From NCBI GenBank assembly GCA_910585015.1, contig CAJUCT010000008.1, forward strand, positions 29,106-93,105: a DNA stretch of 64,000 nt. The letters run 5' to 3'. The notes under the pieces were generated by a model. That model had not been told where the DNA came from. It saw only the letters and a list, made by a program, of their open reading frames with translations, and did not search any database. Within the stretch, counting starts at the first letter, position 1. Every line of letters begins with the position of its first letter. The DNA is from an uncultured Acetatifactor sp. Lineage in GTDB: Bacteria > Bacillota > Clostridia > Lachnospirales > Lachnospiraceae. A program made the position numbers and the translations under genes. Positions 3,853 to 61,898 of this stretch are shown piece after piece.

Positions 3853-4090
3853 AACATGCGGAACATGCGGAACGCCAAGACAGCATGTTCCCGGACAGTA
3901 CACTGATGAACATCTGGACGCCAAAGCGGCCGGATGTGCATCACCTGATATGTGAACTGGTAGGGAACATGCGGAACGCCAAGACAGCATGTTCCCGGAC
4001 AGTACACTGATGAACATCTGGACGCCAAAGCGGCCGGATGTGCATCACCTGATATGTGAACTGGTAGGGAACATGCGGAACTCTAATAGG
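3853..4090 (+). repeat. Tandem duplication (104 bp unit, 2 full copies plus partial copies) of the hairpin/GCGGAAC element, family 1
   Basis: Unit 3861-3964 is repeated at 3965-4068 with no differences seen by eye. A third partial copy ends in CATGCGGAACTCTAATAGGAGG directly before the rplI ATG. Confidence 0.95.
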
Positions 4091-6053: not shown

Positions 6054-6152
6054 TCCCTGGAATATACACTGAACAAAAGCAAGACGCCCAAGCGGCATGA
6101 TTTTGTTCACCAGGATTGTGTACAGACAAGGAATATGCGGAACTTTAAATAA
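6054..6152 (+). repeat. Family 1 hairpin/GCGGAAC element, single copy
   Basis: ACTGAACAAAAGCAAGACGCCCAAGCGGCATGATTTTGTTCACC aligns by eye with the cores at 3903-3945 and 17523-17566. It ends in ATATGCGGAACTTTAAATAAGAAAGGGG before the merR-like ATG. Confidence 0.7.
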
Positions 6153-6166
6153 GAAAGGGGAAAGTT

Positions 6167-8023: not shown

Positions 8024-8102
8024 GCTTACCTCTTTCCTGCATAACGTGGATTATGCTCGTGTTATTACCTTAATCGGTATTTGGATGTGCAACATCCAAA
8101 AC
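8024..8102 (+). repeat. Family 2 palindromic element, single unit
   Basis: CTTACCTCT...CCTGCATAACG...TTAATCGGTATTTGGATGTGCAACATCCAAA matches the units at 61738-61898 and 25214-25380. Confidence 0.75.
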
Positions 8103-8214
8103 CAATATTGAATAAAGTCATTATAGCAGAATTTCTAATAAATGGAAAGATGGTTTTGAAAGAATGCCGCATGGATATAGTATGTCCGAAAAATGGAAAA
8201 GGAGTACAAAAAAA

Positions 8215-17072: not shown

Positions 17073-17501
17073 ATGATAGCGATCGGAAGTGATCATGGCG
17101 GTTATGATTTAAAGAAGAGGGTAATTCAGTATCTGGAGGAGAAGCAGATCCCCTATCAGGATATGGGATGCGACAGCAAGGCATCCGTGGATTATCCCAT
17201 ATACGGGAAAGCGGTGGCCCAGGCAGTGGCTGAGGGCAGTTGTGAGAAAGGTATCGTAATCTGCACCACAGGCATCGGCATCAGTATTGCGGCCAACAAG
17301 GTGCCGGGAGTTCGCTGCGCGCTGTGTTCGGATACTTTGTCCGCCAAGATGACCCGCCTGCACAACGATGCCAACGTGCTGGCCTTGGGCGGCGGCATGA
17401 TCGGCGACAATCTGGCGCTGGACATCGTGGAGACCTTTTTAAACACCCCCTTCTCCAACGAAGAAAAACATCAGAGAAGAGTAGATATGCTGAACTTCTA
17501 G
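17073..17501 (+). CDS. rpiB: Ribose-5-phosphate isomerase B
   Basis: IAIGSDHGGYDLK...GIVICTTGIGISIAANK...NDANVLALG. Confidence 0.92.
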   Translation: MIAIGSDHGGYDLKKRVIQYLEEKQIPYQDMGCDSKASVDYPIYGKAVAQAVAEGSCEKGIVICTTGIGISIAANKVPGVRCALCSDTLSAKMTRLHNDANVLALGGGMIGDNLALDIVETFLNTPFSNEEKHQRRVDMLNF

Positions 17502-17502
17502 A

Positions 17503-17622
17503 CAGCAGATTCCCGGACGGCTCACTGATGAATATTCGAACGCCGAAGCGTCAAGATGTTCATCACCGGATGAGTGTGCCAGGAGGGAAGCTGCGGAATT
17601 TCGAACGGAACTTTTAAATAAG
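17503..17622 (+). repeat. Family 1 hairpin/GCGGAAC element, single copy
   Basis: ACTGATGAATATTCGAACGCCGAAGCGTCAAGATGTTCATCACC core with an outer stem GCAGATTCCC / GGGAAGCTGC, then GGAATTTCGAACGGAACTTTTAAATAAGAGG before the upp ATG. Confidence 0.8.
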
Positions 17623-25213: not shown

Positions 25214-25380
25214 TCAATGCAATATCCATAGTAAGGTAAATTTGGATCTGACGTTCCAATTACTGATTAACGCAGTATTGCAGGCTCCGCCTGCGATATG
25301 CATGTAGAAGTAAGTTCGGATGTTGCACATCCAAAAACGTATTAGGGCAATATCACAGGTATAGCCTGTGATATGCAGGA
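25214..25380 (-). repeat. Family 2 palindromic element, two units, in the atpA-atpG spacer
   Basis: The reverse complement reads CCTGCATATCACAGG...TTTTTGGATGTGCAACATCCGAACTTACTTCT...CCTGCAATACTGCGTTAATCAGTAATTGGAACGTCAGATCCAAA, colinear with 61738-61898. Confidence 0.8.
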
Positions 25381-25391
25381 AAGAGGTATAT

Positions 25392-28782: not shown

Positions 28783-28833
28783 AGAGAATTTACAATAAGC
28801 AGAGCCACGGGAACCATGTGTTTTCGTGGCTCT

Positions 28834-29047
28834 GCGGAACTCTAAACGGTATGTGCCCGGGCGGGGCGGATGCGGAACTCTAACGGTATGTGCCCGGGCG
28901 GGGCGGATGCGGAACTCTAAACGGCATGTGCCCGGGCGGGGCGGATGCGGAACTCTAAACGGCATGTGCCCGGGCGGGGCGGATGCGGAACTCTAAACGG
29001 CATGTGCCCGGGCAGGGCGGATGCGGAACTTTAGTCGGAGGAAAAGG
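28834..29047 (+). repeat. 38 bp tandem array, 5 copies plus a partial sixth (GCGGAACTCTAAACGGCATGTGCCCGGGCGGGGCGGAT)
   Basis: Contiguous units at 28834, 28872 (37 bp), 28909, 28947 and 28985. The final partial unit GCGGAACTTTAGTCGGAGGAAAAGG runs into the methyltransferase ATG. A hairpin at 28801-28833 precedes the array. Confidence 0.95.
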
Positions 29048-30277
29048 ATGGACGAGCTTAGCGGGCTGCTGAGAGAAATTATGAATGAGAAACTGGTGCA
29101 GGCGATCCTGAGCAACAGCCGGGACAAGTCCTATGGGGACAAGCTGAAGATGCGCCCGGTGCTTTTGCAGGGAAAGCTGATGTTCCAGAGTACCCGCTAT
29201 GCGGGAAACCAGGTATTCCATGAAAACCATGATGCCCCAGGAGCATGTGGATTAATAGAAAAGCTGCTGCAGGGGCAGTTTCGTCAGTGCGAGATTATAA
29301 CTCAGGACAAAAGCGCCACTGTGTTGGTCAGCAAGAAGGGGAAAATGACGATTAAGGCCAGAGCGGCGGCCTGCAATGCCCCCAGGGAGCTTTCCCATAA
29401 CAGAGAAAAGCAGTATATCCTGAGGGAAGGCTGTCCGGTAGATTTCCTGGTAGGGCTGGGGGTCCAGACACCGGATGGCAGAATCACCAAGAACAAATAT
29501 GACAAATTCCGCCAGATTAACCGTTATCTGGAGTTTATCGAGGATATATTGGATCAGCTGCCCAGGGAGGGCACGATCCATGTGATCGACTTCGGCTGTG
29601 GAAAGTCTTATCTGACTTTCGCCATGTACTATTACCTTCGTGTGCTGCAGGGGAGGGATATCCACATCACAGGTCTGGATCTGAAGGCGGATGTAATCCG
29701 GCGTTGCAATGAGTTGGCCGCACAGTGTGGGTATAAGCAGCTGCGATTTCAGGTGGGGGATATCAGCGCCTATGAGGGGGAGCAAAAAGTAGATATGGTG
29801 GTATCTCTCCACGCCTGTGATACGGCTACAGACTACGCATTGGAAAAGGCTGTGGGCTGGGGGGCCAAGGTGATCCTGGCGGTGCCCTGCTGTCAGCACG
29901 AAGTCAACAGACAGATTCATTGCAAAGAGTTGGAGCCGTTACTGCGCTATGGAGTGATCAAGGAGCGCATGTCAGCTTTGATCACAGATGCAATCCGGGC
30001 AGGATTGCTGGAGCAGCAGGGGTACGATACGCAAATCCTGGAGTTTATAGATATGGAGCATACACCCAAAAATCTTCTTATCAGAGCGGTGAAGAGACCC
30101 AATGGAACAGGTACGGGACGGCAGCGTATGCTGAAAAAGCAGGAAACCCTTGGGGAATCAGGGAGGCAGGAGGGCAAAGGAAGCGCCTTGCGGGAAGAAT
30201 ACACTTTGCAGCACACTATGGAACTGTTGGGGGTGAATCCCACGTTGGCACGTCTGCTGGATAGGAATCAAGTATAA
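29048..30277 (+). CDS. Class I SAM-dependent methyltransferase
   Basis: VIDFGCGKSYLT motif I. Start set at MDELSG, after GGAGG. Confidence 0.75.
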   Translation: MDELSGLLREIMNEKLVQAILSNSRDKSYGDKLKMRPVLLQGKLMFQSTRYAGNQVFHENHDAPGACGLIEKLLQGQFRQCEIITQDKSATVLVSKKGKMTIKARAAACNAPRELSHNREKQYILREGCPVDFLVGLGVQTPDGRITKNKYDKFRQINRYLEFIEDILDQLPREGTIHVIDFGCGKSYLTFAMYYYLRVLQGRDIHITGLDLKADVIRRCNELAAQCGYKQLRFQVGDISAYEGEQKVDMVVSLHACDTATDYALEKAVGWGAKVILAVPCCQHEVNRQIHCKELEPLLRYGVIKERMSALITDAIRAGLLEQQGYDTQILEFIDMEHTPKNLLIRAVKRPNGTGTGRQRMLKKQETLGESGRQEGKGSALREEYTLQHTMELLGVNPTLARLLDRNQV

Positions 30278-38606: not shown

Positions 38607-38790
38607 GTATAACCATCCTTATTTAAAGTTCCGCAGCTTCCCTGTCACTGCACAGATCCGGTGATGAACATCCAGCCGCTGACGGCGTCTGAATATTCAT
38701 CAGTGCAGTAACAGGGAAGCAGCTGTTTAAAGTTCCGCAGCTTCCCTGTCACTGCACAGATCCGGTGATGAACATCCAGCCGCTGACAGA
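38607..38790 (-). repeat. Family 1 hairpin/GCGGAAC element, tandem (104 bp period, about 1.7 copies)
   Basis: AAAGTTCCGCAGCTTCCCTGTCACTGCACAGATCCGGTGATGAACATCCAGCCGCTGAC occurs at 38625 and 38729. In the gene orientation it ends in GCTGCGGAACTTTAAATAAGGATGG before the dnaD-like ATG. Confidence 0.92.
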
Positions 38791-50700: not shown

Positions 50701-51347
50701 AGATCCGGGGAGCGGGAAATCTGCTGGGTATGCGTCAGCACGGGCATATGGAGGCGGTGGGCTATGACCTGTACTGCAAGATGCTGAACGAAGCGGTGCA
50801 ACGGCGGAAAGGGATCGCCACGGCAGCGGATTTTGCCACGGTGGTGGATCTGGATGTGGACGCTTTTATACCGCCGGAATATATTGTCAACGAGGTGCAG
50901 AAGCTGGATATCTACAAGCGAATAGCGGGCATCGAGAATATCCGGGAGCGGGACGACATGCGTGACGAGCTGCTGGACCGCTTCGGGGAGGTTCCCACCT
51001 CCGTGGAGAATCTGCTGCGGATATCCCTGATCCGGGTGGCGGCCCACAGACTTTACATGACGGAACTGAAGGGAAAAAATGAGCGGATCATCTTTACTTT
51101 CCGGCCTGATGCCCCCATTGCGCCGGAGCGGATTCCCGGCTTTTTGAAGCCTTACGGAGACAGGCTGCGCTTCACGGCCTACGGCAATCCCTTTTTTACC
51201 TATAAATATAAGAAATGCAATGTCATTGAGAAGGATGCCCAGAACCTGCTCTCGGACACGGAACAGCTGCTTGTGGCCATGGAAGTGCTGTTGGATGAAA
51301 ATCATGTGGGCGATAAGCTTGGAACTGACGTTCCAAATACTGATTAA
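47745..51347 (+). CDS. mfd: Transcription-repair coupling factor
   Basis: About 1200 aa with [30 protein letters not shown] and a TRCF C-terminal domain. Follows pth as in most Firmicutes. Confidence 0.95.
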
Positions 51348-51375
51348 TGCAGTATCGCAGGTAAGAGGAAACCAT
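51315..51375 (-). repeat. Family 2 element variant overlapping the 3' end of mfd
   Basis: GGAACTGACGTTCCAAATACTGATTAATGCAGTATCGCAGG parallels 25247-25286 (GGATCTGACGTTCCAATTACTGATTAACGCAGTATTGCAGG). Confidence 0.75.
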
Positions 51376-54143: not shown

Positions 54144-55313
54144 ATGAGTGATTTGGATACTATGTTAAAACAGGCTCCCACCTTGACGCTGGAGCCTTTT
54201 GGGACGCCAAAGCAGGAGATGGCTCCCATGAGTGATGCCCAGGTGGCAGAGGCGGTTAAGGAACAGATGAATGTGGAACTGACTCCCGAGGAGCAAAAGA
54301 TGGTGGATGATTTCGCCGAGCAGATTGACCTGCACAATACCCAGCTGATCCTGCAATATGGTGCGGGAAGCCAGAAGAAGATTGCGGATTTCTCCGAGAA
54401 TGCCCTGGGCAGTGTGCGCACCAAGGATCTGGGGGAGATTGGCCAGCTGCTGACGGACGTGGTAGGCGAGTTGCGTTCCTTTGAAGAGGAAGAGGAAGAG
54501 AAGGGTTTTCTGGGTATCTTTAAGAAGACCGGCAACAAGCTGTCCAATATGAAGGCAAAGTATGACAAGGCGGAGGTCAATATCAACAAGGTGTGCAAGG
54601 TCATGGAAGAGCACCAGATCACGCTGCTGAAGGATGTGGCCATGCTGGACAAGATGTATGAACTGAACCTGAACTATTTTAAGGAATTGTCCATGTATAT
54701 ACTGGCCGGCAAGAAGAAGCTGGAGCAGGCCCGCAACGTGGAACTGAAGGAACTGGTGGCCAAGGCGGAGCAGAGCGGATTGCCGGAGGATGCCCAGAAG
54801 GCCAAGGATTTCTCCAGCATGTGCGAGCGTTTTGAGAAGAAACTCTATGACCTGGAGTTGACCAGAACCATCTCACTGCAGATGGCGCCTCAGATTCGTC
54901 TGATCCAGAGCAATGACACCATTATGTCCGAGAAGATTCAGTCCACTCTGGTGAATACCATTCCTCTGTGGAAGAGCCAGATGGTGATTGCCATCGGCCT
55001 GGATCACTCTGCGGACGCTGCCAAGGCCCAGAGGGAAGTCAGCAACGTAACCAACGAGTTGCTGAGGAAGAACGCGGAGGCGTTGAAAATCGCCACAGTG
55101 GAAACAGCCAAAGAGGCGGAGCGGGGTATCGTGGATATCGAGACATTGACAGCCACCAACCAGACCCTGATCAGCACCCTGGACGAGGTGAGGAAGATTC
55201 AGGATGAAGGACGCCAGAAGCGTCAGAGCGCAGAAATCGAGTTACAGCGTATTGAAAATGAGATGCGCAGTAAGTTGCTGGAAATGAGCCGTCAGGATCA
55301 GCCAGGGGCGTAA
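54144..55313 (+). CDS. telA: TelA/YaaN family toxic anion resistance protein
   Basis: QYGAGSQKKIADFSENALGSVRTKDLGEIGQLL and overall helical architecture. Confidence 0.85.
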   Translation: MSDLDTMLKQAPTLTLEPFGTPKQEMAPMSDAQVAEAVKEQMNVELTPEEQKMVDDFAEQIDLHNTQLILQYGAGSQKKIADFSENALGSVRTKDLGEIGQLLTDVVGELRSFEEEEEEKGFLGIFKKTGNKLSNMKAKYDKAEVNINKVCKVMEEHQITLLKDVAMLDKMYELNLNYFKELSMYILAGKKKLEQARNVELKELVAKAEQSGLPEDAQKAKDFSSMCERFEKKLYDLELTRTISLQMAPQIRLIQSNDTIMSEKIQSTLVNTIPLWKSQMVIAIGLDHSADAAKAQREVSNVTNELLRKNAEALKIATVETAKEAERGIVDIETLTATNQTLISTLDEVRKIQDEGRQKRQSAEIELQRIENEMRSKLLEMSRQDQPGA

Positions 55314-55364
55314 ATTGGATGCTGCGTACTCAAATCTTTTGCGCGGCGGATGCATATAGACACA

Positions 55365-55398
55365 TAAAATGGGACCTTTTAAGAGGTCTCATTTTATT
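55365..55398 (+). terminator. Intrinsic terminator after telA
   Basis: AAAATGGGACC-TTTTAA-GAGGTCTCATTTT followed by ATT. Confidence 0.65.
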
Positions 55399-55734
55399 GT
55401 AGATACTTCACTCTTGGGCACGGGAAAGGCCCGGATGAGAGATATGGTTCTGCTGGCCTTTGAGGGAGACGTGTCGTGGCAGTTGAGCGACAGCGTAAAC
55501 TCGGAAAGCATTATGAAAATTGAGGCGTAAGAGGGGAAAAGGGTAAAGATTTCCGTTGGTAAAGCCTGTAGGGATTCGTTCCATACGGTTTGCGGTGATA
55601 TTATGTTGACTTCCTACATTAAAGCAAGTATGATAAGAACATAAGAGACAGCGTTATATCTTACCAGAAAAGAGGCGGTTGCTTCATTATAATTGCCTGC
55701 GAATGACTGTTTGGAAAAGGGGCATGGACGATAA

Positions 55735-55806
55735 ATGTATGATTTTGAAAAGAAGCGGCTTCCCATCGGAATCGAGAACCTTGAGGAGATGCGCAAACTC
55801 ACATAA
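55735..55806 (+). pseudogene. N-terminal stub of an AAA-ATPase-like (PF09820-type) gene
   Basis: The 23-codon ORF MYDFEKKRLPIGIENLEEMRKLT* matches the characteristic ..KLPIGIQ.F..LR. opening of that family and then stops. Confidence 0.4.
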
Positions 55807-56184
55807 AAAGGGCGGGACTGGAAAACGGAAACAAATGTTATTTACAGTGTAAAACAAAAGATAGGGTAAGGAAATAAGCAAAACTATAAATAAGAGAGAG
55901 CAACATTCAGTTTTAAGGGATACCTAAAATGAGTGTTGCTTTTTTTTCTAATAACATATATAATCTAGAATTACAATATGTAGAAAAGAAATTAATCTTA
56001 ATTATACTATTTAACTCTATAAATATAAACGGTTCTGAAAGAGGTTAATTTCGTATTTGGCAATAATCAAGTGATATTACATGGGATGTAAATGGCAGGC
56101 GAAAGCCGATTGGAATGTGACCGACGTGTAAGATATACTGTCTGACTGCAGGGATCAGCGGAGTGATTTTATCGGGTTGGGCTT

Positions 56185-57798
56185 ATGGAAAGGATAATAC
56201 GGATGATGACAGAGTTTGAGCATGATGCCACGCCTACATGGAGTGGATTTATATATCAGGGCCATGTGGCAATGTATTTAGCGGTACGGAAGATCTGTGA
56301 ATTGTTGGAGTCACCGCATCCTATGGAAGTACAGGAAATTGCCGCATCGTTTAGGCTGGAAGTGGAAAATTGGGAAGATGTGGCTATTTTCAGCGAGGAT
56401 AAACAGGGAAAACATTATAAATCAATACATCAGGTCAAAAACAGGCGGGAAAATAATATTGGAGCCTACAAGGATCCGATTGTGCAATTACTGTTAGAAA
56501 AGAGTAAGATGGGGGAATTGGCGTTGGGAACGCCAGAAGCATATTTACATACAAGCGCCATAATCAATGAAAGTGAAACAGTAATCAAACAGTCTCTGCA
56601 AGACTGGAATCATCGAGTCCTGGATTTTTATAATAGTCTGGCGGATCTCAAAGATCAAGAGATAGAGGAAAGTGAGAAGAATGAATTCCAACAAAGGGTG
56701 AGTGCTGCGATAGAGGAGGAACCTATAGGACTTAACAGGAAAAAATATTCGAGTTTACTAAAAAATATAAAGAGTTGCATTGAAAGCGACCAAGGGATAT
56801 ATGAATTAAAACAAAATATAGAAAAATTGTGGTTATATCTGAAAAACGAGTTGGCAGTCGGAAGTATGGGTGCAGACGCAAAGATTTATACTTATGATGA
56901 CGGGGCTGCTGGTGGCAACGCGGAGCAGATTTTTGATAAGATAGTTGGACAGGTAAAACGATACAAAGAGATCACGAATAGTCCCGATCGATTGACAGAG
57001 GAACAATACGTGTACATAGCAGATAAGCTGCTGGAATATATGAGAAATTTTATTTCCAATAGGCATAACTTAATGCACAAAAAGGAGGAGTATCCTAAAG
57101 AGTTTTTATTTTCAGAAGTGATAAGTATTTTGGATAATTGTGTACAATTTATTGAAAAAAAAGCTAATGTAATGGCTCTCAGAAGAAGATATGATGAGGT
57201 GATGTCTCAATATTGCAGAGTGATTTGTAAAAATAAGTGTGAAGAGGAGAACGGTTGTGAATGCAGACTGCTGTACCCGGAATATGGAATAACGGATTTG
57301 GATGAAGAAAGCTTTATAAGGATGTGCTTTGGCTATAATCCGGACTGCGATACGGGGATAGAGGATCGCATGTGTATAGGAAAACTGCTTAACAGCGATG
57401 GGCTACAGAATTCCGTTTTTAAAGTATTAAAAGAGTGTTCGCAAGAATTCTTCAGGCAGGAAAAGGACAAAACAAGAGTCGTGATTAATGATAAAAATAA
57501 AAATGCGTTTCTGACGGCAATTTCAAAGGGAAATGCCGATGCGGTAATAGAAGATATTGTAAAAGGAATCAATAAAAATTCTTCCATGGTGAGCCCTGTC
57601 TTTGAGGCGGATGAATTGATTACAGACCGACTGCATTCAACCGACGAAGAAATGTGGGATAGCAACTTTTGTTATATAACGGAAAGATATTTGAGCGCAA
57701 AAGCGAAGGAGAATAGCGACAATATCCAGAAAAGTATTTGCGCTCCCAAGAAACCTACATTTGTCACTGCGGGGGAAGTGATGGCGAGGCTGCAATAA
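56185..57798 (+). CDS. Lamassu LmuA-like / ABC-3C effector candidate: N-terminal PD-(D/E)xK (Cap4/DUF4297-like) nuclease fold plus a long uncharacterised C-terminal region
   Basis: WSGFIYQGHVAMYLAV, then EVENWEDVAIFS and SIHQVK (E/D...QxK arrangement). AT-rich codon usage. First gene of a tight three-gene operon. An alternative start at 56203 has a better RBS. Confidence 0.55.
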   Translation: MERIIRMMTEFEHDATPTWSGFIYQGHVAMYLAVRKICELLESPHPMEVQEIAASFRLEVENWEDVAIFSEDKQGKHYKSIHQVKNRRENNIGAYKDPIVQLLLEKSKMGELALGTPEAYLHTSAIINESETVIKQSLQDWNHRVLDFYNSLADLKDQEIEESEKNEFQQRVSAAIEEEPIGLNRKKYSSLLKNIKSCIESDQGIYELKQNIEKLWLYLKNELAVGSMGADAKIYTYDDGAAGGNAEQIFDKIVGQVKRYKEITNSPDRLTEEQYVYIADKLLEYMRNFISNRHNLMHKKEEYPKEFLFSEVISILDNCVQFIEKKANVMALRRRYDEVMSQYCRVICKNKCEEENGCECRLLYPEYGITDLDEESFIRMCFGYNPDCDTGIEDRMCIGKLLNSDGLQNSVFKVLKECSQEFFRQEKDKTRVVINDKNKNAFLTAISKGNADAVIEDIVKGINKNSSMVSPVFEADELITDRLHSTDEEMWDSNFCYITERYLSAKAKENSDNIQKSICAPKKPTFVTAGEVMARLQ

Positions 57799-57833
57799 GT
57801 CTGGCAATTTTCTAAAGAAGAGGAGAGAAAGGT

Positions 57834-58586
57834 ATGCGTGAGTTTATCAGATCAATTGCAGGGGATAGCTGTTGGGATTTTTCTTATAAAGAGTACAATT
57901 TCCTTTTTGCTGAGCAAAAGTATCAATCTTATTATCTGTTCTATTTTCCCTCTGATAGAGATCAATTATTGAAACTGAAGAAGGAGGCCGGAGATATTTT
58001 TCGGGCTATAAAAGAAAGTAAAAGATATCATTCAGATATGGATAAAAACATAACCTGTATTCTGTGTCTGGAGGTAGATAATCATGCGTATTATGAAGCA
58101 AGCGCATCCGGAAAAGTCAGTGATTTGGGTAAGATCATTTGCCTTGTAGAGGAAGATTTGAACTATTTTAAGAAGAATGTGCTTTTATACACAAAAGAGA
58201 TGGACGAGTTCTCACAAGAGCATATAGGGTGTTTGAAATCTCTTTGTCAGGAATATTTTACAGAAGAGAATTTCCAGTCCTATAAAAAATCGTATGGTGA
58301 TAATATTGAATATGACTTTTTAATTAATCTGTTTATTAAAATTCCATTTCTTAGTTTTGAGGGATATCAGCCTGGAAACCGCAAAGAATATCAATCTATG
58401 GAGGCATTTATTAAGGCCAGACTGACAGAAAAAGAACTCAATCTGAAGCTTATAGAAGAAATATGTATTCATCTTGAGGAGAATTTACAGGATGATGATG
58501 CTTTATTTGAGTATCTTGATGCAATGGTGAAAGAGCAGATAAATGAAGCAGGTATGACAAAGGAGGAACAGATTCATGAGGATTAA
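57834..58586 (+). CDS. Small acidic helical protein, LmuC-like / ABC-3C middle-component candidate
   Basis: 250 aa with GAGGAGAGAAAGG RBS. Its stop overlaps the start of the ATPase gene by 11 nt. No catalytic motif seen. The call rests on position and size. Confidence 0.45.
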   Translation: MREFIRSIAGDSCWDFSYKEYNFLFAEQKYQSYYLFYFPSDRDQLLKLKKEAGDIFRAIKESKRYHSDMDKNITCILCLEVDNHAYYEASASGKVSDLGKIICLVEEDLNYFKKNVLLYTKEMDEFSQEHIGCLKSLCQEYFTEENFQSYKKSYGDNIEYDFLINLFIKIPFLSFEGYQPGNRKEYQSMEAFIKARLTEKELNLKLIEEICIHLEENLQDDDALFEYLDAMVKEQINEAGMTKEEQIHED

Positions 58587-61011
58587 AAGTCTTGAAATAA
58601 AGAATTTTAAACTATTTGATGATAAATTCGATAAAATGCGGAATATTTCGCAGGCAGATCTGATTTTGCTAAACGGTCCTAACGGATATGGTAAAACGAC
58701 AATCTTTGATGCGCTGGAACTGGCTTTGACGGGTGAAATAAAAAGAATCAATACTTATAACGAAGAGTTAGGAGTGTCCAAAAGTGAGAAGTCCAAAAGA
58801 AAAATACTGATTGCTAATCCCTCCGAGGAGGCATATGTAAATGTAGTATTGGAAGAGGATGGAAATGAACTGAAGATGGTGCGGTTTTATGAAAAACCAT
58901 TGGGGGATCAGGGAACAGAGGCTTCTCAGGACAATAATCCACACAAGATCTTTAAAAAATTCCAGTTAAGGCTTATTTTTAATGGTGAAGAGATAAAACA
59001 GGAGGAAGAAAGAATCCGCGTTTTAAAGCAGTATAATTTATACGGTATAGGAGATTTTTTTGATAAATGCTGTTTCCTTTCACAAGATGAGCATTTACAG
59101 TTTCTGAAAGAGACGAAAAAGGACAAGTCGATAGCTTTAGATTTTTTGTTTCAATTGCCTGAGAAACAGCAAAAAGAATTGAACAGGGTAAATGCTATTC
59201 TCAATTCAATACAAAATTCCAATACAAAAAACAATTTGGGATTTATGAAAAAATTCGAAAAACTTGAGAATGGCCTAAGAGAAGAGATTGAAAAGCTAGA
59301 AAGCATCTTGCAAAATAATTTAGTCGGACAGAACATGGAAGAGCGGGCGGGGGCTGAATATATGCGTCTGTTTCCGGATAAAGAAATTAATTGGGACGGA
59401 GAAAATCCGTTACTTAAAGATGAGGAATTTGACGCGGCTCTTAAGGTATTAGAAAGACTGGAGTACTATGCGCAGAATCAGGAAAGCTGCAAAAAATATA
59501 TTTGGAATAACCCCTACAGGGAATTATTGAAGCCTTTTAAGGGGACAGAAGATATTTTATATGAGGAAAATGCGCTTGAGTATGCGTTACGCTTTTTTCC
59601 GTTATCACAAAATGGAGAAATACTTGAAAATAGGTATCACAGGCAACAACAGTTGGAGTTACTTAAGCAAAACTTGGACAAGCGGGAAATCTATAAGCTG
59701 AATTGGACGGTGGTGGCCAGTGAAAAACTTTTAAAGGAAGAAATGATTGAACTTGCCCAAAGTGATATAAAACAGGTGAGAGCTTTGGAACAAGTTCAGG
59801 GAACAATTGATCAAGTACTTTCAGAGATCAGCAATACTAGGACTGTCTTATTACGTCAGACAAAGGCGGCTATGGAGCAAAAGGCGATTCCAGACGGGGA
59901 ATGCCCGTTTTGTGGTACCTCATATGGTGAGTGGGAGATACTGGAACAACATATTTCAGCAGAAAAAGATAAATTGTTGTCCTTAAGCGAAGGAACAATT
60001 ATAGATATACAGAATCGAAAAGATGATATATATGAAAAATATTTAGACGAAATAGCTGTATCAATACAAGTTCTTTTGCAAAATAGAGTATCAGAGGCGG
60101 TTTATAAAAAATGCTTGGAGGTAAAGAAGTATAAAGCGGGACTGGACGAAATAAATGGGCTGCTCAAAAAAATAAATGTTGAGCTTCCTTTGGAATACCA
60201 GGAGGATATGACTCAAACAGCCCTGGCTTATGAGCATTTGGTTCAATCAATAAAAAATGGATTAATGACAATTCCAGATGCGGTTCAGGAACAGTTGGAT
60301 TTAAGTGAATTCTGGAAAGATTTTACGTATTATTACGATAAAAGTGAGGATAAGTTCAGTGAAAAAGTAGCTTTTATGATATGGGCAAAGAAAGACTATA
60401 TTATGCGATTTTCATTGGATTCCCGTAGAAAACTGCTTTTGGTCAAAAAGAGCGAATTATCGAAAATAGTAGACAGGCGTACAAAATTAAATGAAATATA
60501 CAATATGCTGTCAGAGTATAAAAATGCCATAGAGGCAGGAGTGACAGATTATAAACAAAAAGTAATCCGGGATATTGAGCCGTTACTGCATGTGTACACT
60601 GCGAAGATCCTGCAACAAAAATTTTGTGGAAAAAGTATTTTTATTTTGACGGATAAAAATATGCAGAATTTCCAGCTGACACATTCACAGGAAGACAATC
60701 AGGATATTTTATACAATATGAGTTCAGGGCAGCTTGCTGCAGTTTCACTTTCTTTTTTGCTCTGTATGCATCAAGTATATGCAAAGCAGCAATCATTGTC
60801 TGTTTTACTGATAGATGACCCTGTTCAGACAATTGATGATGTGAATATGGTGGGGTTAGTGGATATTTTGCGTTTTGAATTTCAAGATACACAGATTTTT
60901 ATATCAACACATGAGCAAAAGTTTGAGTGGTATCTGAAATACAAATATGAAAAAGCCCAGAAGAAAATAGAATCGTACAATATGAAGAATATTGTATTAC
61001 AGGTGGATTGA
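58576..61011 (+). CDS. SMC/Rad50/SbcC-like ABC ATPase with coiled-coil insert and CxxC hook (LmuB-like)
   Basis: Walker A LNGPNGYGKTT, Q-loop FLSQDE, signature MSSGQ, Walker B VLLIDDP and H-loop STHE. About 550 aa of heptad-rich sequence lie between the head halves, with CPFCG at residues 443-446. Confidence 0.85.
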   Translation: MRIKSLEIKNFKLFDDKFDKMRNISQADLILLNGPNGYGKTTIFDALELALTGEIKRINTYNEELGVSKSEKSKRKILIANPSEEAYVNVVLEEDGNELKMVRFYEKPLGDQGTEASQDNNPHKIFKKFQLRLIFNGEEIKQEEERIRVLKQYNLYGIGDFFDKCCFLSQDEHLQFLKETKKDKSIALDFLFQLPEKQQKELNRVNAILNSIQNSNTKNNLGFMKKFEKLENGLREEIEKLESILQNNLVGQNMEERAGAEYMRLFPDKEINWDGENPLLKDEEFDAALKVLERLEYYAQNQESCKKYIWNNPYRELLKPFKGTEDILYEENALEYALRFFPLSQNGEILENRYHRQQQLELLKQNLDKREIYKLNWTVVASEKLLKEEMIELAQSDIKQVRALEQVQGTIDQVLSEISNTRTVLLRQTKAAMEQKAIPDGECPFCGTSYGEWEILEQHISAEKDKLLSLSEGTIIDIQNRKDDIYEKYLDEIAVSIQVLLQNRVSEAVYKKCLEVKKYKAGLDEINGLLKKINVELPLEYQEDMTQTALAYEHLVQSIKNGLMTIPDAVQEQLDLSEFWKDFTYYYDKSEDKFSEKVAFMIWAKKDYIMRFSLDSRRKLLLVKKSELSKIVDRRTKLNEIYNMLSEYKNAIEAGVTDYKQKVIRDIEPLLHVYTAKILQQKFCGKSIFILTDKNMQNFQLTHSQEDNQDILYNMSSGQLAAVSLSFLLCMHQVYAKQQSLSVLLIDDPVQTIDDVNMVGLVDILRFEFQDTQIFISTHEQKFEWYLKYKYEKAQKKIESYNMKNIVLQVD

Positions 61012-61082
61012 CGATTTTAGAAATAGATTGAAAAGGGGAATATATGCCATAGAACGAATTCTTTCCCGTGTGGCGTTATGGA

Positions 61083-61181
61083 ATGACCACAAATTTACAA
61101 TTATGGATCGCAGAACTGCGTAGGTAACAGGGGATCAGCCAGCAGCAACTGGCTGATCGGCTGGGACCTTTATGGTCATAA
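61083..61181 (+). pseudogene. Truncated XRE-family HTH gene with an in-frame stop
   Basis: MTTNLQLWIAELRR*QGISQQQLADRLGPLWS*. The helix-turn-helix opening is interrupted by TAA and ends after 32 codons. Confidence 0.5.
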
Positions 61182-61192
61182 TATATTGTCTG

Positions 61193-61699
61193 CTACAGCT
61201 TGTCAATGGATTTTTCGGCCGAATTATTTTCTTCGTTCCTCTGCCGGAAAGCCCAGAGTTTGTTGACCAGATAATTCATAGGCAGTATCAAAACCAGATT
61301 GACACCCTCCGCAAACAGATTGCCAAGAACCTCCGCGTCCAGAAAACGGATGCCCCACCTGCTCAGCAGCCCGGCCACCGGGGTCATATAGTTCGCGATA
61401 TGCAGTACATCAATCCAGAGTACCAATAACATCAGATTGGCCAGAAATCCCCAGAGATAGGCGATAAACGTCTTGATCAATACCTTCCACCAGACTCTTT
61501 TCTCCAGGCTTTCATCTTCTTTGAATACATATCGGTTGTTCCAATAGTAGGCGTTAAAGATACTGAGTACAAATCCCGTGGTGCTGGCAAACAGATAATG
61601 TCCCTTCAGGCACACGATCACGGCATATATGACTTCGCTGATCAAAGTATTGGACAGCCCCACCAGGCCGAATTTGAGAAACTGCTTAATGTGTTTCAT
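61193..61699 (-). CDS. GtrA family membrane protein
   Basis: KFGLVGLSNTLISEVIY...NRYVFK, four TM helices. Confidence 0.85.
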   Translation of the reverse strand: MKHIKQFLKFGLVGLSNTLISEVIYAVIVCLKGHYLFASTTGFVLSIFNAYYWNNRYVFKEDESLEKRVWWKVLIKTFIAYLWGFLANLMLLVLWIDVLHIANYMTPVAGLLSRWGIRFLDAEVLGNLFAEGVNLVLILPMNYLVNKLWAFRQRNEENNSAEKSIDKL

Positions 61700-61737
61700 A
61701 TGATAATCGCAATCCTTTTTGTCTATGGAGGTTCAAG

Positions 61738-61898
61738 CCTACCTCTTCCCTGCATATCGCAGGCCCAGCCTGCGATACTGCGTTAATACGTATTTGGATG
61801 TGCAGCATCCAAACTTACCTCTTCGTGGATATTGCTGGCCGCGCCTGCAATATCCCTTAATGCGTATTTGGATGTGCAGCATCCAAACTTACCTCTGG
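61738..61898 (+). repeat. Family 2 palindromic element, two tandem units (74 bp period)
   Basis: TTTGGATGTGCAGCATCCAAACTTACCTCT at 61793 and 61867, each preceded by CCTGC(G/A)ATA..TTAAT(A/G)CGTA. Confidence 0.9.

Follow-up and report, generated by a model that had tools for sequence, protein, structure and literature searches.

The three-gene operon described here occupies positions 56185-61011 of a 64,000-nucleotide stretch of DNA from an uncultured Acetatifactor sp.; this whole stretch, at its full length, is referred to as the window. Judged from its sequence, the operon is very probably a type II (LmuA-LmuC-LmuB) Lamassu/ABC-three-component (ABC-3C) defence system of the 'long' class, with an effector built of a Cap4-like nuclease and C-terminal domain 1 (CTD1) and with a middle component of class 1 (MC1). 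The three genes are the following.

56185-57798, + strand: lmuA (gene 1), open reading frame (ORF) of 537 amino acids (aa), effector
57834-58586, + strand: lmuC (gene 2), 250 aa, middle component
58576-61011, + strand: lmuB (gene 3), 811 aa, Rad50/SMC-like ABC ATPase, putative sensor

All genes are co-directional, genes 1 and 2 being separated by a gap of 35 nucleotides (nt) and genes 2 and 3 overlapping by 11 nt; on re-reading, the ORFs, their coordinates and both junctions match exactly those given in an initial annotation of the window. Genes 2 and 3 are preceded by strong Shine-Dalgarno sequences. Translation of lmuA probably starts at ATG 56203 or 56206 rather than at 56185, which would yield a protein of 531 or 530 aa. 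In favour of this start, a GAAAGGA Shine-Dalgarno sequence precedes 56203 by 9 nt, the first residue of homologues corresponds to M8, and the gene is called at 530/531 aa on other contigs. Residues of LmuA are numbered throughout according to the 537-aa ORF starting at 56185.

The initial annotation had read the operon as a Lamassu/ABC-3C system and had tied this reading to a profile link for genes 1 and 2. Profile matches are found for both genes, with the Pfam domains CTD1 and MComp1 above their gathering cut-offs, and the PADLOC models of LmuA and LmuB are matched as well, so that the reading is upheld. NCBIfam contains no model specific to gene 1 or gene 2. The A-C-B triplet and similar gene sizes are kept in all of the approximately 27 related loci for which enough sequence is available, and these range from Clostridia to Bacteroidota and Proteobacteria. 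A Wadjet system (JetABCD) was considered and rejected, since no Jet models are among the PADLOC matches and the partners of the ATPase are LmuA and an MC1 protein, not the kleisin JetA, the KITE protein JetB and the Toprim protein JetD.

LmuB matches the PADLOC LmuB model PDLC03859 end-to-end (E 1.3e-50), and both Pfam SMC_N (51.8 bits) and AAA_23 (53.6 bits) are above cut-off. Its motifs were aligned with those of 27 orthologues drawn from related loci, with lengths of 759-843 aa.

58675-58698, + strand: Walker A GPNGYGKT (K40); GPNG(Y/F)GKT invariant in the 27 orthologues
59902-59913, + strand: zinc hook C443-P-F-C446 at the coiled-coil apex, followed by G447; the sole CxxC in LmuB
60718-60732, + strand: ABC signature MSSGQ (residues 715-719); (M/F)S(S/A)GQ invariant across the orthologues
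60802-60819, + strand: deviant Walker B VLLIDD (D747-D748), in which Asp replaces the catalytic Glu
60910-60912, + strand: H-loop H779; S-T-H invariant across the orthologues

The Q-loop residue Q170 and the D-loop are likewise invariant, the Walker B motif takes the form hhhIDDP in all 27 orthologues, and each of them harbors a single C-x-x-C-G halfway along the coiled coil. The SMC/Rad50-type ATPase recognized in the initial annotation is thereby confirmed with respect to K40, the Q-loop, MSSGQ, Walker B and H779, and so is the coiled coil splitting the head, the span from Q-loop to signature amounting to approximately 545 aa. According to PMC12663957, short Lamassu systems possess an LmuB of about 600 aa with a Walker B of the type hhhhD[Q/S/T/E] and zero to two hooks, long ones an LmuB of about 800 aa with hhhhDD and always one hook. 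LmuB of the window carries all three sequence marks of the long class (about 800 aa, hhhhDD, one CxxC). When the profile of the LmuB clade was compared with PDB sequences, Rad50 heads were found at E 3e-11, and the solved short LmuBs were not reached; this agrees with the view, expressed in PMC12663957, that long LmuB is nearer to SbcC/Rad50.

The middle component LmuC carries the domain of one of the ABC-3C middle-component classes (MC1-8).

57966-58235, + strand: MC1 domain of LmuC, aa 45-134; PF20289 MComp1, E 3.1e-12, 46.6 bits (cut-off 27.3)

With an isoelectric point of 4.73 the protein is acidic, just as gene 2 had been described at first, and N72, E106, F112, K114, F147, K169, P171 and F172 are invariant (17-27 orthologues).

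LmuA matches the PADLOC LmuA model PDLC03848 over aa 12-488 (E 2.8e-23). Its homologues were found in 124 clusters; among 1.84 billion cluster representatives, 26 related proteins lie at E<=1e-30 and 230 at E<=1e-3, and the LmuA clade is small. The closest named relatives, 72-74% identical, stem from metagenome-assembled genomes of uncultured Lachnospiraceae and Acetatifactor. From the N- to the C-terminus four features can be delineated.

56215-56556, + strand: Cap4-like PD-(D/E)xK nuclease core, aa 11-124, with W19-S-G-F-x-Y-Q-G26, acidic residue 61, D65, H82-Q83-x-K85 and H122
56575-56868, + strand: four-helix insertion of about 95 aa (aa ~131-228) between nuclease core and CTD1
56881-57630, + strand: ABC-3C CTD1, aa 233-482; PF20276, E 2.1e-41, 142.5 bits (cut-off 25)
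57214-57375, + strand: Cys cluster within CTD1; C344, C360, C381 and C388 invariant, C397 in at least 90% (40 long-clade homologues)

The N-terminal 125 residues are the best-conserved part of LmuA. In an alignment of 40 homologues F11, H13, D14, W19, G21, F22, Y24, Q25, G26, E59, E61, E64, D65, H82, Q83, K85 and H122 are invariant, the window protein itself reading W19-S-G-F-I-Y-Q-G26 and H82-Q-V-K85. A scan of GTDB species genomes with WSGF[IL]YQG and YxSIHQVKN returned 58 loci, which fall into two LmuA groups. Long LmuAs (520-550 aa) occur in Lachnospiraceae, Acetatifactor, Dorea, Faecalicatena, Frisingicoccus and other Bacillota, and short LmuAs (413-474 aa), which are 30-39% identical to LmuA of the window over aa 13-125, in Flavobacterium, Pedobacter, Pseudomonas, Vibrio, Escherichia whittamii, Bacillaceae and others. 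W-S-G-F-x-Y-Q-G, D65, H-Q-x-K85 and H122 are conserved in both groups (more than 60 sequences). Ten relatives from outside the Clostridial clade, namely nine short LmuAs and one archaeal LmuA of 524 aa (L030), were profiled in addition: all ten match the same PADLOC LmuA model, CTD1 is present in nine, and seven match Pfam Cap4_nuclease (PF14130), three of them (28.3, 29.0 and 28.6 bits) above its cut-off of 26.2 bits. Two of the 40 long-clade LmuAs touch this model at E ~8e-4, below the cut-off.

The AlphaFold2 model of full LmuA has a predicted local distance difference test score (pLDDT) of 86.4 and a predicted template modelling (TM) score, pTM, of 0.86. Its best Foldseek neighbours in the PDB are the Salmonella LmuA tetramer 9hr5 (E 1.2e-3, probability 1.0, TM score 0.24-0.31), HerA-DUF4297 9c1m and LmuA 9nxx, with global TM scores of 0.24-0.33, which are low because the domain arrangement differs from that of the neighbours. 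Modelled by itself the nuclease domain attains a pLDDT of 90.7, and its predicted alpha-beta-beta-beta-alpha-beta core exceeds 90. A profile of the nuclease core yielded a weak PDB match to the anti-bacteriophage protein A 8zue (E 0.016), in which GF-x-x-Q ... D ... QVK are aligned. Intermediates and motifs thus support an N-terminus that is a divergent Cap4-like PD-(D/E)xK nuclease. The top matches of the same profile, to 'AI-designed TIM-barrels' at E ~5e-10, were discarded as an artefact, short designed-repeat segments being matched repeatedly.

A module consisting of the nuclease and the insertion (aa 7-200, up to about 360) is also found fused to other C-termini in five proteins (P0119, P0120, P0118, P0112 and P0109), whose C-terminal parts bear the precomputed Pfam tags PGK PF00162, SMC_N, HNH PF01844 and PF17762. 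These fusions may reflect domain shuffling or may be assembly chimeras.

CTD1, one of the ABC-3C C-terminal domains CTD1-12, is matched by all 40 aligned LmuA homologues and is inferred to serve as docking and oligomerisation domain. The insertion preceding it is predicted to form four helices (131-157, 162-177, 186-200 and 205-222; pLDDT >90), with W141, Y149, P180, I181, R185 and Y188 conserved in the 40 homologues; the segment has no Pfam match. The CTD1 LmuAs of 413-434 aa from Bacteroidota and Proteobacteria lack it, and Bacillaceae have part of it. The Cys cluster, a candidate metal site, is absent from short-type CTD1 LmuAs. Both are embellishments specific to the Clostridial clade, and no mention of either was found in the sections and passages of the Lamassu papers that were read. 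That the insertion and the Cys344/360/381/388(/397) cluster add a regulatory layer, e.g. a metal- or redox-gated release or oligomerisation of the effector, is a tentative and rather doubtful proposal; if true, long Lamassu of this kind would assemble or fire unlike the A1B2C1-to-A4 scheme of short Lamassu.

All three genes are under purifying selection. Measured against orthologues of 72-82% protein identity, the ratio of nonsynonymous to synonymous substitution rates (dN/dS) is 0.22-0.24 for lmuA, 0.14-0.25 for lmuC and 0.16-0.17 for lmuB.

The operon lies within a variable island between two core genes.

54144-55313, + strand: TelA, core gene, left flank
55396-61167, no strand: variable island between the core genes TelA and GtrA-like
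55601-55806, + strand: 5' remnant of a PF09820 (AAA-ATPase-like) gene, 84% nt identity to the gene beside TelA in loci L003 and L007
55894-55950, + strand: intrinsic-terminator hairpin with U8, closing the upstream module (-24.4 kcal/mol, z = -6.45)
61193-61699, - strand: GtrA-like gene, core gene, right flank

In a nucleotide comparison, homology to operon-free contigs ends at 55395 and resumes at 61168. The block thus delimited has a guanine-plus-cytosine (GC) content of 37.3% and extends beyond the ORFs; across it GC drops to 33-41%, as compared with 50-58% in local 500-nt windows elsewhere. The operon proper has 36.7% GC, the remainder of the 64-kb window 51.4%. Of the contrast put forward in the initial annotation the low value of the operon therefore holds, and the figure of about 60% for its flanks does not.

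Contigs of the same species were collected by exact-sequence look-up of the TelA and GtrA proteins, and the state of the site was scored in 25 of them. Three show TelA, a TetR gene and GtrA without Lamassu, and four the arrangement of the window, TelA-Lamassu-GtrA. In the other 18 TelA is followed by a restriction island of about 9 kb (PF09820 ATPase-like, HTH, two DNA methylases, Mrr_cat, MTaX1/AAA_5 and RE_LlaJI genes) and, where the contig is long enough, by Lamassu and then GtrA. Within this one species the TelA-GtrA intergenic site (window 54144-61699; loci L001-L012) has at least three alleles and constitutes a defence hotspot. Alleles bearing Lamassu have the segment 55795-64000 in common at 97-98% identity, and copies of the operon that are 97-100% identical turn up in many independent metagenomes. 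The TetR alleles retain a 159-bp piece of lmuB (L001 11327-11485, also in L002 and L010), 96% identical to window 60665-60823 and including both the signature and Walker B; the operon-free state is therefore a secondary loss or a replacement by the TetR-family gene. The PF09820 remnant of the window is the short ORF MYDFEKKRLPIGIENLEEMRKLT, ending in a stop; the intact gene heads the ~9-kb island of other strains, between TelA and Lamassu. In the nucleotide comparison the remnant is 84% identical, over 55601-55795, to the start of this gene, which suggests that the window allele was derived by deletion from an island-bearing allele.

In other Lachnospiraceae species the operon is 80-82% nt-identical and the flanks have no homology. 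In relatives (L071-L074) a homologous Lamassu triplet, together with an AAA_15/AAA_21 pair, is nested in a BREX operon, with the PglX methyltransferase/Ser-Thr kinase on one side and PglZ on the other, and other relatives adjoin ZorA-like and OmpA genes, or Tn7-like TniQ/TnsA genes. Conjugative enterobacterial plasmids (Klebsiella, E. coli) carry short-type relatives only, annotated as 'ABC-three component system protein', and a search of a phage collection returned no relative of the operon. The operon is accessory island cargo at a site of gain and loss. The island status assumed at the outset is thus corroborated, presence and absence at one site within the species and differing defence or mobile neighbours in other taxa being found in place of a conserved housekeeping core.

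The hairpin at 55894-55950 is real as judged by RNA folding, 0 of 200 shuffles being equally stable. It insulates the operon from upstream transcription, and the Lamassu promoter must therefore lie at about 55950-56184. A promoter/terminator consensus scan gave counts equal to the shuffled expectation and missed this hairpin. Downstream of lmuB another very stable hairpin is located at 61133-61160, with no T-run after it; the segment 61095-61185 folds at -34.2 kcal/mol (z -4.5). The same positions can also be read as an HTH_XRE-like peptide fragment (ISQQQLADRLG), possibly a further gene remnant.

Several repeats were noticed elsewhere in the window. A dispersed intergenic repeat with the palindromic core TTGGATGTGCAGCATCCAA is found in both orientations at 8027-8109, 25255-25388, 51314-51361 and 61716-61896; two tandem copies adjoin the GtrA-like gene, and its appearance is that of a repetitive extragenic palindromic (REP) or miniature inverted-repeat transposable element (MITE) type. 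At 28807-29071 a 38-nt unit (AACGGCATGTGCCCGGGCGGGGCGGATGCGGAACTCTA) is repeated in tandem six to seven times, the array running into an ORF start at 29021, and 'GCGGAACTTTAAA' ends related to this array are present at 6091-6158 and 38613-38787. A perfect tandem duplication of 104 nt occupies 3860-4067, with a third copy, 71% identical, at 17482-17585; these may constitute one intergenic repeat family with a 62-nt pair at 38622/38726 (38622-38787), the spacing of which is 104 nt.

Short Lamassu complexes solved from V. cholerae, Salmonella and Bacillus serve as the model for the mechanism proposed here. A pair of LmuB subunits, joined by the zinc hook and with their coiled coils folded, and one LmuC would jointly sequester the CTD of one LmuA molecule, so that the nuclease stays an inactive monomer. 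Its release would be triggered by phage or plasmid DNA in the form of ends or hairpin-type replication intermediates, along with ATP-driven engagement of the heads. Free LmuA could then oligomerise via CTD1, whereby the nuclease domains would be paired, and indiscriminate DNA cutting would result in abortive infection or in elimination of the plasmid. The ATP-binding motifs and the nuclease signature are intact, and the Walker B motif with its DD is of a hydrolysis-weakening kind; it predicts a slow ATP turnover, as expected for a switch and not for a motor.

Several observations weigh against this picture. In HMMER comparisons of LmuA, LmuC and LmuB with PDB sequences, both as single sequences and as profiles, no solved Lamassu chain was reached, and LmuB found only Rad50/SMC heads. 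LmuC has no match to the PADLOC LmuC model at E<=1 and none in the PDB. LmuA of the window lacks a match to Pfam Cap4_nuclease at E<=1, the cut-off of 26.2 bits not being attained, and the domain is for this reason named Cap4-like and not treated as a formal member of PF14130. Foldseek with the domain-only model gave 9c1m_G as best match at E 0.058, nothing at E<=0.001 and otherwise mostly generic four-helix bundles, which are drawn by the helical insertion and account for the lack of a significant match. As the solved systems belong to the short class with CTD7/MC3 or CTD12, not CTD1/MC1, the A1B2C1 stoichiometry and the tetramer order are assumptions here. No structure of a long Lamassu was found, and in PMC12663957 only one long system is reported as validated, with a different effector. 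Finally, neither the insertion nor the Cys cluster has an equivalent among characterised systems, and both could change the regulation.

The two negative results concerning the nuclease are also the grounds for an alternative in which gene 1 has no active Cap4-type DNase at its N-terminus but another or an inactive PD-(D/E)xK-like fold, for instance a DNA-binding module, with the toxicity residing elsewhere. This is quite improbable, given that the catalytic signature is invariant in more than 60 sequences, that the protein is continuous in sequence with relatives above the Cap4_nuclease cut-off, that the weak match to 8zue aligns the same motifs and that Pfam detects no other enzymatic domain in the operon. 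The PD-(D/E)xK motif proposed initially is hence retained as far as E64, D65, Q83 and K85 are concerned, all of them invariant, and with relatives that do reach the cut-off, and is qualified by the missing Cap4_nuclease match of the window protein. The flux of the site, where some strains have deleted the operon except for 159 bp of lmuB and a neighbouring gene has left a remnant in the window, might suggest a relic of a defence island that is decaying and no longer functional; with three ORFs and all motifs intact, dN/dS values of 0.14-0.25 and 97-100% identical copies in many metagenomes, this is highly improbable. Even less credible is a housekeeping DNA-repair module of the Rad50/SbcC type. 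The best PDB matches of the LmuB profile are indeed Rad50 heads, and the zinc hook resembles that of Rad50, but the operon contains no Mre11/SbcD, the partners are ABC-3C proteins with CTD1 and MC1, GC is 15 points under the background, and the neighbourhoods in other taxa are unrelated, and defensive or mobile. Presence/absence polymorphism within the species, with the operon missing in some conspecific strains, effectively refutes this alternative.

Of greater weight is the question of the target. With the same mechanism as in the proposed Lamassu system, the operon could be directed mainly against plasmids and conjugative elements, as V. cholerae DdmABC, and not against phages; such a preference is conceivable, though on balance not favoured. 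Lamassu/DdmABC systems have been described as both anti-plasmid and anti-phage, and the lack of a relative in the phage records, along with the short-type relatives on conjugative Klebsiella and E. coli plasmids, fits a competition between mobile elements. The sequence, however, does not separate the two kinds of target, and the restriction-modification, BREX and Zorya-like neighbours are classical anti-phage systems.

The long-class Lamassu assignment thus retained is of value chiefly as annotation, in that a long-class, Cap4-like, CTD1/MC1 Lamassu is placed at a strain-variable hotspot of gut Lachnospiraceae. Of the two halves of the family, long Lamassu is the one that has been studied too little. 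Since the operon is compact and well conserved, comes with a natural knock-out allele, bears a clade-specific insertion and Cys cluster and belongs to this class, it would be a sensible choice for structural and functional studies.

In order to place the operon among known systems, it was compared with the following five. Rad50, the proposed ancestor of Lamassu, shares with LmuB an ABC head split by a coiled coil and a CxxC zinc hook and is its best PDB sequence match. In contrast to Rad50-Mre11/SbcCD, there is no Mre11/SbcD nuclease partner here, the Walker B motif lacks the catalytic Glu, and the operon is accessory instead of core. The type I system LmuAB of Bacillus cellulasensis (CTD12) likewise combines a Cap4 effector with an LmuB that has a canonical zinc hook, while it consists of two genes without LmuC and belongs to another CTD class.

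DdmABC of V. cholerae (VcLmuACB) and LmuACB of Salmonella enterica (9hr5) are both short systems with Cap4, CTD7 and MC3. The gene order, the Q-x-K nuclease motif, Walker A K40, a deviant Walker B and, presumably, the logic of sequestration, release and oligomerisation are common to them and to the operon of the window, and in structure comparisons with the LmuA model they rank first. K85 of LmuA is, by motif position, the counterpart of the catalytic lysines K57 (Vibrio, Bacillus) and K68 (Salmonella), which have been mutated in the solved systems. Differences are observed in the presence of CTD1 and MC1, in an LmuB that is about 200 aa longer, in the Walker B motif with DD in place of D[Q/S/T/E] and in the lack of any sequence-level match; furthermore, VcLmuB has no zinc hook, whereas LmuB of the window has one.

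The CTD and middle-component classes of ABC-3C systems were reportedly laid down by Krishnan et al. 2020. With the ABC-3C pairing of CTD1 and Middle Component 1 (PF20276/PF20289) the operon agrees in that both domains are above the curated cut-offs; it departs from the MC1 class in that the model covers only aa 45-134 of the 250-aa LmuC, the acidic, helical C-terminal half being unannotated.

The closest correspondence is with long Lamassu carrying a Cap4 effector. In PMC12663957, Cap4 is listed among the effectors of the long class, the sole validated long system is the hydrolase-protease system of Bacillus cereus B4077, and the structural work had been directed at the short V. cholerae system. 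An LmuB of about 800 aa, hhhhDD, one CxxC, the A-C-B order, a Cap4-type effector and a defence-island context are shared, the class match here being one of LmuB length and motifs, and Clostridial LmuA differs by adding the insertion of about 95 aa and the Cys cluster. Catalogued ABC-3C domains, together with the coiled coil and zinc hook of long LmuB (PMC12663957), account for the roughly 1100 residues that the initial annotation had been unable to place, and its suggestion of a new subtype is not supported, as these domains and the published marks of long Lamassu fit the operon. No new system or category is called for; the operon illustrates well a kind that is already known.

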